The position numbers were made by a program, and so were the translations under genes. Shown in pieces: positions 9,878 to 11,050 of a DNA stretch of 64,000 nucleotides. The notes under the pieces are model-generated. The model did no database searches and was not told the DNA's origin. It saw nothing but the letters and a program-made list of their open reading frames with translations. The DNA is taken from the NCBI GenBank assembly GCA_963645945.1, contig CAVIUA010000003.1, positions 149 to 64,148 on the forward strand. Direction: 5' to 3'. The stretch's first letter is position 1. Each line of letters starts with the position of its first letter. The stretch is from a bacterium (lineage in GTDB: Bacteria; Bacillota_I; Bacilli_A; RF39; UBA660).

Positions 9878-11011
9878 TTACACCTCTTCACTTAGCCATA
9901 CTGTTGGAATTCCTGCATAAGGAATCATACTAACAGCCTTTCCAATAACAGATGCTTGATCAATTGTCCAGGCATCTTCTGTTTTGTTATTGTCCCCTTT
10001 TGTTCTAAAATAGTAATTATCGTTTATTTTTTCCATTTTTATAATACGATGAACTACTACAATATCATTATATTTATATACTAATACTTCGCCTACTTTT
10101 AAGCTTCCAATATTATCTTGGGCAATTTTTTCTACTATTACAACGTCACCTTTTTTTATTTTTGGATTCATTGAATCAGAGCCTATTGCTAGAGCATAAA
10201 ATTTAAATGTTCCAGATGTAAGTGCAATAGTTAATGATAGAAAAATAACTAACACGACTGTTGTGATACGTTGAACTAAAAAGTTTCTTCTTATATCAGA
10301 TTTTCCTTTTTTATTACCAAATTCCTTATATGTTTTCCATAGTATATATGCTGGTAATAATAATTCAATTATAGTTTTAAAATATTCATTAATATTTGGA
10401 ATGATTGGTATTATATATGAAGGTATCTCCATGATTAGTCTATATATTATACCCGGTCCATAACCAAACTTATAACATAAATATGTTAGAAAAAAGTTTT
10501 TTGATAATATTGGTAGTACACTCATGTAGCACATTTTTACAATACCTAAGGTAGTATTTAGATCATATGCATAAGCTACTAGCTTGGTATCTATTGTAAC
10601 AAACATAAAACATGATAGTATGATAAGAAATTTATTATTTTTTGTCTTACTTATAATTTCATATCTTAATATTTCTGATATTCCTATTGTTAATATTATT
10701 GGCACTGTATTTCTTATTATTCCTAATATTGATAAACTATATCTAGTTTTTAAAAAACCAACTATTAGTCCTGATAAGTAGATTACAATGTAATAAATAA
10801 AACAATATATTAGAATACTTAAGATATTATCTTTTTCATACAAATTTCTCTTTTTTTCATGACCAGATACAAGTATTGTTATACCAAGTATTATGGCAAG
10901 AAAAAGTATCATGCTATATTCTTCTAATTTATTTGTTACAAAAATATCTAAAAGAAGTATCATTATTGTTGCTAATTGTATCAAAGCTAGTTTTTTTTCA
11001 CCCGTTTTCAT
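9878..11011 (-). CDS. polytopic membrane domain fused to archaeal/ER-type (SipW-like, S26B) signal peptidase I
   Basis: C-terminal ~130 aa carry GSDSM (Ser), VVHRI (His) and KGDNN boxes. N-terminal ~250 aa are 7-8 predicted TM helices. I prefer ATG 11011 (MKTGEKK, RBS AGAGGGAA) over the TTG at 11047, giving 377 aa, the same length as the paralog at 22132-23265. Confidence 0.8.
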   Translation of the reverse strand: MKTGEKKLALIQLATIMILLLDIFVTNKLEEYSMILFLAIILGITILVSGHEKKRNLYEKDNILSILIYCFIYYIVIYLSGLIVGFLKTRYSLSILGIIRNTVPIILTIGISEILRYEIISKTKNNKFLIILSCFMFVTIDTKLVAYAYDLNTTLGIVKMCYMSVLPILSKNFFLTYLCYKFGYGPGIIYRLIMEIPSYIIPIIPNINEYFKTIIELLLPAYILWKTYKEFGNKKGKSDIRRNFLVQRITTVVLVIFLSLTIALTSGTFKFYALAIGSDSMNPKIKKGDVVIVEKIAQDNIGSLKVGEVLVYKYNDIVVVHRIIKMEKINDNYYFRTKGDNNKTEDAWTIDQASVIGKAVSMIPYAGIPTVWLSEEV

Positions 11012-11050
11012 ACTTTTCCCTCTTTCAAATATTTTTGTAATAAACAAGGA

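Follow-up and report, generated by a model that had tools for sequence, protein, structure and literature searches.

A 64,000-nucleotide (nt) stretch of DNA from a bacterium of the RF39 lineage (GTDB Bacillota_I, Bacilli_A; GenBank contig CAVIUA010000003.1, positions 149 to 64,148), here termed the window, carries two paralogous genes whose products join an eight-helix membrane domain to a signal peptidase I (SPase I) of the archaeal/endoplasmic reticulum (ER) type. We rate it at somewhat better than even odds that each gene provides the dedicated SPase of an operon for AbpX-like donor-strand fibres, with its N-terminal domain (N-domain) serving as a docking scaffold. Fibres of the TasA superfamily (TasA, AbpA, AbpX, tafi, threads and cannulae) are an emerging, cross-domain system for building biofilm matrix, and the maturation of their subunits and the hand-over of these to polymerization are poorly understood.

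All window features described here lie on the reverse (−) strand of the window, which has a G+C content of about 26%. The open reading frame (ORF) of the first gene, copy A, was listed as 9878-11047 and opens at a TTG codon (11047), but an ATG at 11011, with GAAAGAGGGAAAAGT as a ribosome-binding site just upstream, is the preferred start, yielding a gene (9878-11011) for a fusion of 377 amino acids (aa), the same length as that encoded by copy B (22132-23265). Both frames, 9878-11047 and 22132-23265, are free of internal stops, which together with the ribosome-binding site bears out the two 377-aa ORFs proposed, with these starts, in an initial annotation of the window. The motifs quoted there were likewise recovered in both copies: GSDSM (277-281), HRI (321-323), KGDNN (338-342), EILRY (113-117) and PIIPNIN (202-208) in copy A, and GSGSM (278-282), HRI (319-321), KGDNN (336-340), EFLRY (113-117) and PVIPNMN (202-208) in copy B. 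In the latter gene, the N-domain maps to 22573-23265, QEFLRY to 22915-22929, the Ser box to 22420-22434, the His box to 22303-22311 and KGDNN to 22246-22260. The two proteins share 30% identity over 325 aligned residues that cover both domains (E 3e-37).

The C-terminal parts of both proteins, from about residue 249 to 377, match TIGR02228 (sigpep_I_arch, archaeal/ER-type) with 89.8 bits for copy A and 82.0 bits for copy B, well above the curated cut-off of 51.85. In copy A, the catalytic domain (residues 266-377; 9881-10216) follows a K/R-rich cytoplasmic linker (residues 232-242) and a ninth transmembrane (TM) helix, TM9 (residues 243-265; 10217-10285), which constitutes the in-to-out anchor of the peptidase. 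Its candidate catalytic residues, S280 (10172-10174), H321 (10049-10051), D340 (9992-9994) and D346 (9974-9976), are 100% conserved in the 126 full-length family members from which all conservation figures given here derive, and both copies present the GSxSM Ser box, a His rather than a Lys as general base in the HR box and an Asp in or after GDNN. When the whole-protein model was compared with the PDB by Foldseek, only the catalytic domain was matched, the top match being human SEC11A (7p2p_A, E 1.3e-4), followed by Staphylococcus aureus SpsB, Streptococcus pyogenes SipA and LexA. As read from their sequences, both proteins are S26B SPases I of the archaeal/ER type (SEC11/SipW class), with predicted cleavage activity, and the complete S26B module reported in the initial annotation stands. 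Its label of SipW-type, however, does not: the SipW equivalog model NF046067, whose cut-off is 190 bits, scores no more than 58.3 for copy A and 60.0 for copy B, and we rejected an assignment to that equivalog in favour of the broader archaeal/ER-type family. SipW measures about 190 aa and has a single TM helix at each terminus. Like SipW of the Bacillus subtilis tapA-sipW-tasA operon and the archaeal and ER SEC11 proteins (MEROPS S26B), the window proteins combine GSxSM, HR and GDNN boxes with a His general base, lie beside TasA-superfamily substrates and place an extracytoplasmic catalytic domain behind an N-in anchor; in contrast to SipW, they reach 377 aa, add eight TM helices before the anchor, lack the C-terminal one and are accompanied by a DUF5305 protein instead of TapA. 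An annotation as signal peptidase I is too imprecise for such fusion proteins.

Because the whole-protein comparison had returned the catalytic domain only, the N-domain of copy A (residues 1-231; 10319-11011) was also modelled alone. The full-length AlphaFold2 (AF2) model, built on a 14-sequence alignment (predicted local distance difference test, pLDDT, 79.7; predicted TM-score, pTM, 0.72), places a ninth helix, the anchor (243-265), after the first eight and ends in a domain rich in beta structure, and the N-domain-only model, which drew on a deeper, 37-sequence alignment (pLDDT 94.1, pTM 0.90), agrees on the eight helices. These are placed at residues 3-26, 31-49, 59-84, 95-122, 127-146, 154-182, 185-200 and 209-231, and a two-stranded outer beta-hairpin pairs residues 86-88 with 203-205. 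Lys and Arg residues average 13.3 in the loops predicted to be inside versus 2.0 in those outside, a bias that holds in 126 of the 126 family members. The protein is therefore N-in, has nine TM helices and exposes its catalytic domain outside the cell. The 7-8 TM helices first predicted ahead of the catalytic domain thus correspond to the eight of the N-domain, but AF2 brings the total to nine when the anchor of the peptidase is counted.

Family members are on average 28% identical to one another over the N-domain and 41% over the catalytic domain. The N-domain harbors a motif, E113-I-L-R116-Y (10661-10675), that resides in the inner-leaflet third of TM4 and in which E113 is conserved in 126 of 126 sequences and R116 in 125. 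According to the family alignment, the conservation of this ExxR motif equals that of the Ser, His and Asp of the catalytic site, an observation that is new here. Conservation of G81, P205, P202, G85, P220 and N172 ranges from 93 to 98%, with P202 (96%) and P205 (98%) forming part of the outer loop PIIPNIN (10388-10408), which pairs with G85-F86 (10754-10771) in the small extracellular beta-hairpin. The conserved positions fall into two clusters. The first is polar, buried about two thirds of the way to the cytoplasm and composed of E113 and R116 (TM4), N172, T176 and Y177 (TM6) and Y190 (TM7); the second, on the outer face, comprises Y78, G81, G85, F86, D/E141, Y199, P202, P205 and Y210 and would form the hairpin beside the exit of the anchor. 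The family alignment contains no conserved His anywhere in residues 1-240, and no conserved Cys either. The invariant ExxR and the two clusters provide concrete targets for mutation.

A sequence search with the N-domain alone retrieved 49 proteins, down to 30% identity, and all the full-length proteins obtained (about 375-387 aa) carry S24/S26 Pfam domains. Searching 1.84 billion representatives with an N-domain profile extended this set to 1,537 clusters (at 50% identity) with E ≤1e-3, of which 1,109 have E ≤1e-10. The N-domain is hence a genuine, conserved module, as the initial annotation had supposed, and it occurs far outside this genome, so that the first of the two outcomes named there as refuting does not apply. 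Its close relatives come solely from uncultured assemblies labelled as Bacilli, 'Tenericutes', Mycoplasma or Clostridia and have no product names. Scans of residues 1-247 against Pfam and NCBIfam matched no family, the same scans for 12 family members at E up to 10 gave scattered chance matches only, and a sequence-profile search of the PDB with the N-domain, also at E up to 10, gave nothing. An unnamed domain family of more than 1,500 clusters that has no Pfam or NCBIfam model and is permanently fused to a peptidase merits a family model of its own.

It might be argued that the fusion is an artefact of annotation or assembly in which a missed stop or a frameshift has joined two genes, an outcome named beforehand as one that would refute it. 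In support of this view could be cited the fact that, among the top 147 representatives, 22 fall below 360 aa and that the one of these that was checked (P0052) contains an in-frame TAA between both domains. Nonetheless, 124 of those 147 representatives are 360-400 aa long, which is the length of the fusion, the same continuous frame with a conserved linker occurs in 12 of 12 loci fetched from independent assemblies, both window ORFs are uninterrupted, and the S26 domain has neither a start codon of its own nor an anchor besides TM9. The artefact is already refuted, and we assign it next to no probability. P0052 was found on two independent metagenome contigs (L013:112-1178; L014:239-982), where the single TAA separates the N-domain from an otherwise intact peptidase; because this is a lone in-frame nonsense codon, the ancestral state there was also a fusion. 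Decay to a pseudogene, a naturally split gene and read-through are all conceivable explanations of the interruption. An alternative genetic code was rejected, the interrupting stop in L013 being TAA and TGA serving as a stop in the window. The only long representative, P0076 (812 aa), starts with the N-domain and the beginning of S26 and continues with metallophosphoesterase/5'-nucleotidase-like sequence (GNHEFD), most likely because the gene call is chimeric or frameshifted, and is thus unlikely to be a true third architecture.

The genes adjoining both fusions encode their likely substrates. Those of cluster A are subunit A1 (11101-11712; 203 aa, with two Cys), which is AbpX-like, and its paralog A2 (11727-12314; 195 aa), of minor type, while cluster B contributes subunit B1 (23305-23865; 186 aa) and a large subunit of 775 aa (18704-21031). 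The N-termini of the subunits follow a uniform pattern, with a basic n-region and an unbroken hydrophobic run of 18-20 residues that ends in G-(Y/F)-A, has no polar c-region and is followed by a conserved strand, (A/S/T)-(F/T/I)-(S/T)-x-x-L-x-I-x-G. Since the hydrophobic anchor runs into the scissile bond without a polar c-region, the cleavage site is expected to be flush with the membrane surface. In A1 the signal anchor ends in IGIGFA, with a predicted cut before AFSETLTING; in B1 it ends in IGIGYA, with a predicted cut before ATSTDKVTING; and the predicted mature N-terminus of A2 is AISSTVKISG. A profile of 16 subunits (A4) aligned to the Pyrococcus abyssi AbpX sequence, taken from the supplement of the preprint discussed below, with an hhalign probability of 94.1% (E 1.2e-7, 155 columns), BLASTP to AbpX gave E 2e-4 and the predicted mature N-terminus of A1, AFSETLTING, resembles QWSETLSLSA of AbpX. 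PF12389 matched weakly in 4 of the 16 members, and comparison of the subunit profile with PDB sequences yielded no TasA or AbpX match. The acidic donor-strand signature (A-F-S-E) is present at the predicted cleavage site of A1 and of most A1-type orthologs, and is missing at the predicted sites of A2 (AISS), B1 (ATST) and the 775-aa protein (AMQS). By profile and signal-anchor comparison, then, the small subunits are AbpX-like members of the TasA superfamily, and the notion that the adjacent subunits are the likely substrates is upheld.

The 775-aa protein carries a subunit-type signal (LLNIGYA) followed by the donor-strand signature AMQSTISVSG, as well as Ig-like regions; its gene start overlaps the end of the preceding DUF5305 gene by 11 nt and its homologs come after DUF5305 in two other loci (L009 and L011). 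It is probably a tip or adhesin. Weak matches to Hint/intein-splicing families (PF14890, E 3.7e-5; PF01079, E 2e-3) were also seen; a tip adhesin that includes an autoprocessing module is one possibility.

The order of these genes is conserved. The window and each of the 12 loci fetched, which come from different genomes of uncultured Bacilli and Clostridia, have one to four small subunit genes ahead of the fusion peptidase and, at a distance of -1 to 38 nt after it, a DUF5305 gene; in B-type loci, the gene for a large protein comes after DUF5305. These loci were collected with two narrow peptide patterns and stem from 11 genomes, so that the family is greatly under-sampled in this respect. 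In cluster A, the start codon of the DUF5305 gene (DUF5305_A, 8151-9875; 574 aa; PF17231, E 1.7e-23) lies 2 nt past the peptidase stop, and its product has TM helices at 30-48 and 254-272, which enclose an extracellular segment of about 200 residues and are followed by a cytoplasmic domain, the layout described in the preprint. The cluster B protein (DUF5305_B, 21021-22115; 364 aa; PF17231, E 2.2e-11) has TM helices at 19-37 and 240-258. Orthologs of the B-type peptidase occur in L010 and L011, and, as both paralog lineages have orthologs elsewhere, each peptidase has stayed together with its own set of subunits. The window shows two such fibre systems, each with a peptidase of its own, to be present in abundant uncultured gut Bacilli and Clostridia.

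Dedicated maturation of the fibre subunits of its own operon is the most economical reading of each fusion, and the N-domain is most likely a non-catalytic scaffold that docks the subunit signal anchor. Docking and positioning are favoured because of the strict co-occurrence with AbpX-like subunits, whose hydrophobic anchor leads directly into the cleavage site, the invariant buried ExxR and a weak resemblance to APH-1, a scaffold that presents substrates. In such a scheme, the signal anchor of the subunit would remain in the bilayer following Sec-dependent insertion and be docked laterally by the eight-helix scaffold, with its n-region near the inner-leaflet Glu/Arg cluster. The conserved outer-face hairpin (G85-F86 and P202-x-x-P205) would lie next to the point at which the peptidase anchor emerges, and docking would hold the membrane-flush scissile bond, at G-(Y/F)-A, under Ser280 and His321. 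Cleavage would then free the donor strand and allow the subunit to polymerize by donor-strand complementation, with the DUF5305 beta-sandwich protein probably acting as a stoichiometric partner. The two paralogs would serve separate subunit sets, of A-type (AFSE...) and B-type (ATST... or AMQS...), and the presence of two peptidase-DUF5305 pairs beside two subunit sets is consistent with substrate-specific recognition. By analogy, the arrangement may be regarded as a single-chain counterpart of the eukaryotic signal peptidase complex (SPC) or of APH-1 in gamma-secretase. Of the interpretation first offered for these genes, the conserved module welded to the peptidase and the adjacent likely substrates are retained and the SipW label is not; a function beyond signal removal, such as docking, polymerization or an export platform, is something that we infer.

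The resemblance to APH-1 stems from structural comparison. Foldseek searches of the PDB with the N-domain model gave nothing significant, the best E being about 1, but when ranked by TM-score the only matches to stand out were the archaeal CAAX protease Rce1 (4cad_C, 0.49/0.48, root-mean-square deviation 6.3, probability 0.63, E 1.2) and APH-1B (8oqy_C and 8oqz_C, 0.37-0.39), every other PDB match scoring ≤0.31. Rce1 and APH-1 belong to one homology group, remote members of which carry QExxR or EExxR on the equivalent helix (PMC6588880), EExxR spacing being reported for PrsW and QExxR for APH-1 (PMC6588880). The spacing of E113-x-x-R116 equals that of QExxR/EExxR, and copy B reads QEFLRY. The family does not, on the other hand, conform to motif 1 of CPBP proteins (EExxxR), as position 112 is variable (S in 28, Q in 21, E in 16, I and others) and the spacing is one residue shorter, and CPBP motifs 2 and 3 (FxxxH and HxxxN/D) were not found in the N-domain family alignment. 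PF02517 gave no match at E up to 10 in 12 family members. For profile comparison, a CPBP reference alignment (A6) of 30 members with invariant EE...R, F...H and H...N was drawn from 512 PF02517 proteins. Membership in CPBP was rejected in view of the missing profile similarity, the lack of a PF02517 match and the absence of the conserved His, and the N-domain was not filed under that family because the profile tests are negative and the His motifs absent. The check for CPBP relatives that the initial annotation had suggested therefore came out divided, the fold ranking pointing to Rce1 and APH-1 and the sequence profiles and catalytic motifs being negative.

His-less proteins with the CPBP fold, such as SpdC/LyrA, LnsB and APH-1, are regarded as non-proteolytic, and LnsB and APH-1 offer precedents for non-catalytic CPBP-fold proteins that present a substrate to another enzyme (PMC7387801). 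It can be tentatively proposed, though we regard it as rather doubtful, that the N-domain is an unrecognised His-less branch of the Rce1/CPBP/APH-1 group welded to a SEC11-type signal peptidase. Were this so, the fusions and their DUF5305 partners would represent, in prokaryotes, a one-chain equivalent of the membrane protease complexes that are built from several subunits, in which a pseudo-protease scaffold captures the membrane-embedded signal anchor for the catalytic subunit much as APH-1 or the SPC accessory subunits do. A scaffold of the Rce1/APH-1 kind would connect the processing of signal peptides with the way in which gamma-secretase and the eukaryotic SPC present their substrates and explain how a membrane-flush cleavage site is reached, and such presentation would control when the donor strand is released to start polymerization of the fibre.

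Several points weigh against the docking scaffold and its suggested ancestry. The role of docking in this family is one that we infer, and the invariant Glu/Arg pair could equally well be compatible with catalysis or with ion or lipid binding. As the SPases of TasA, AbpA and tafi have no N-domain, the domain is not generally required for the processing of TasA-superfamily proteins. The resemblance to Rce1 and APH-1 is not statistically significant (Foldseek E 1.2, probability 0.63), a fold search of BFVD gave nothing informative, hhalign between the N-domain alignment (A5) and the CPBP alignment returned a probability of 0.47% without aligning the motif, and hhalign against APH-1A returned 0.4% over 15 columns, in which E113 pairs with E84 and R116 with R87. 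Any placement of the conserved N-domain clusters relative to the active site is tentative, and the linker and anchor region has a pLDDT of only 57-70 in the full-length prediction. Finally, it is from locus composition only that the window proteins seem to belong to the same family as the ten-TM SPase described in the preprint (e.g. A0A1M6GRN4).

The invariant Glu of TM4 also raises the question of catalysis, since it sits at the position and depth expected of the catalytic Glu of CPBP proteins, with an invariant Arg nearby, and a polar cluster of equal depth (N172, T176, Y177 and Y190) could supply the rest of an active site. The N-domain would then be an active, divergent glutamic intramembrane peptidase of the Rce1/CPBP/PrsW type that makes a second cut, clearing the long hydrophobic anchor left behind by the SPase in the manner of signal peptide peptidase or trimming the cytoplasmic n-region, and Rce1 is indeed the best fold match by TM-score; a fused clearing protease would suit abundantly made fibre subunits. 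We consider this improbable, because both His that are essential in CPBP and Rce1 (FxxxH and HxxxN) are absent and no other N-domain His is conserved, the second Glu of EExxxR is not conserved, neither Pfam nor hhalign (0.5%) lends support, and the known His-less proteins of this fold are regarded as non-proteolytic (PMC7387801).

The same intramembrane residues, E113, D/E141 and N172, might instead belong to a small transporter or channel for Ca2+, a lipid or a precursor that has been fused to the peptidase for co-localisation only. AbpX assembly is calcium-dependent (10.64898/2026.01.04.697558), and the Na+/Ca2+ exchanger NCX_Mj ranks among the top Foldseek matches of the N-domain by E-value. 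Its TM-scores, however, are merely 0.17-0.19 and its probability ≤0.10, the internal or inverted repeat symmetry typical of transporters is absent, and no transporter family emerged from the Pfam and NCBIfam scans. Besides, extracellular Ca2+ needs no export and the acidic donor-strand signature is limited to A-type subunits, which leaves a transporter highly improbable.

Another alternative to a docking scaffold, which corresponds to the polymerization platform of the initial annotation, is that the N-domain constitutes an assembly or anchoring platform which, together with DUF5305, holds the first subunit or the fibre base at the membrane after cleavage or nucleates donor-strand exchange, in a role akin to that of an usher or TapA. 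B. subtilis SipW reportedly has a second, non-peptidase role in the formation of surface-adhered biofilms. Moreover, neither window cluster contains an LPXTG motif or other wall anchor, so that some point of attachment to the membrane would be needed, the coupling to DUF5305 is tight and the extracellular segment of about 200 residues of the latter could accept a donor strand, and the outer-face hairpin (G85-F86, P202/P205) is, in the model, exposed next to the catalytic domain. Yet the N-domain exposes very little on the outside, where its loops comprise 4-10 residues, the majority of its conserved polar positions lie buried in the inner leaflet, at a distance from any fibre, and AbpX and related fibres are reported to polymerize in vitro without a chaperone (10.64898/2026.01.04.697558; PMC12518558). 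A platform seems unlikely.

Systems related to the one described here have been reported recently. Sleutel et al. (bioRxiv, January 2026; 10.64898/2026.01.04.697558) reported around ten TM helices for the SPase I of AbpX loci, described DUF5305 as a putative accessory of that enzyme, to which it is in some cases fused, and likened it to the eukaryotic SPC. The initial annotation had called the N-terminal domain unusual; with this report of a many-TM, AbpX-linked SPase I, the architecture is not unrecorded. The preprint offers no fold, family assignment, conservation analysis or mechanism for the extra helices of the SPase, and CPBP, Rce1 and APH-1 go unmentioned in it (10.64898/2026.01.04.697558). 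Because that preprint and the work on tafi already record loci combining an SPase with DUF5305, the window genes are further members of a kind noted recently and only in passing. Like AbpX loci, the window clusters belong to Bacillota and unite major and minor subunits, a large, tip-like subunit, a many-TM SPase I of TIGR02228 type and DUF5305, and their subunits resemble AbpX at the profile level (94%), with the donor-strand signature present in A1 and most A1-type orthologs. They differ in that nine helices (8+1) are counted here as against about ten in the preprint, in that window-type hosts are uncultured, low-GC gut Bacilli and Clostridia and in that the window genome harbors two paralogous systems.

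In haloarchaeal tafi, deletion of tafD blocks the processing of TafA and abolishes filaments, and TafD pairs with a DUF5305 protein, TafG (PMC11821415). The window clusters resemble this system in the presence of a dedicated S26 peptidase and DUF5305 in a donor-strand filament locus, with duplicated pairs in some genomes (PMC11821415), whereas TafD itself crosses the membrane with four TM helices, carries an extracellular Ig-like domain at its C-terminus, lacks the N-terminal eight-TM domain and acts on Tat substrates (PMC11821415). With Rce1/CPBP and APH-1 (in ECOD, an H-group called RCE-1-like) the N-domain shares a count of eight TM helices, as in Rce1, and the spacing of ExxR on TM4, but the His and Asn of motifs 2 and 3 are missing, and the resemblance is a lead and not an established homology. 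As to the eukaryotic SPC (SEC11A/C, SPCS1, SPCS2 and SPCS3; 7p2p), both place an S26B subunit amid extra TM helices and beside a beta-sandwich accessory, although in the window proteins the helices are covalently fused into a compact eight-TM domain rather than distributed among separate subunits of one or two TM helices, and no homology of the N-domain to SPCS1 or SPCS2 was detected.

The surroundings of both operons include other features of interest. A hairpin resembling an intrinsic terminator (8131-8152) ends operon A, and another terminator-like hairpin (23977-24004), located between operon B and a LuxR-type gene, marks the upstream limit of operon B. The LuxR-type gene (24012-25406), directly upstream of operon B, encodes a 464-aa protein with about ten hydrophobic segments and a C-terminal GerE/LuxR helix-turn-helix (PF00196, E 3e-13), which may act on the fibre genes as a one-component regulator embedded in the membrane. 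A gene at 13396-16734, located between the fibre clusters, codes for a 1,112-aa protein with no predicted TM helix and no significant match in Pfam or NCBIfam. Just past the terminator of operon A lies a gene of the FtsW/RodA/SpoVE family (7002-8084; PF01098, E 4.5e-116), from which it follows that the host makes peptidoglycan, even though related metagenome-assembled genomes are labelled 'Tenericutes' or 'Mycoplasma'. DUF5305_A is extended at its cytoplasmic C-terminus by about 210 aa, Lys/Asn-rich tail included, an addition that DUF5305_B lacks; the extension is common to close A-type orthologs (543-599 aa) and absent from distant ones (372-394 aa). In related genomes, additional subunit genes are found upstream of the core operon (L003:823-4467, L004:759-1982 and L005:3524-4117), and the number of subunit paralogs therefore varies among genomes; L003 also encodes a 795-aa protein with a subunit-like region.

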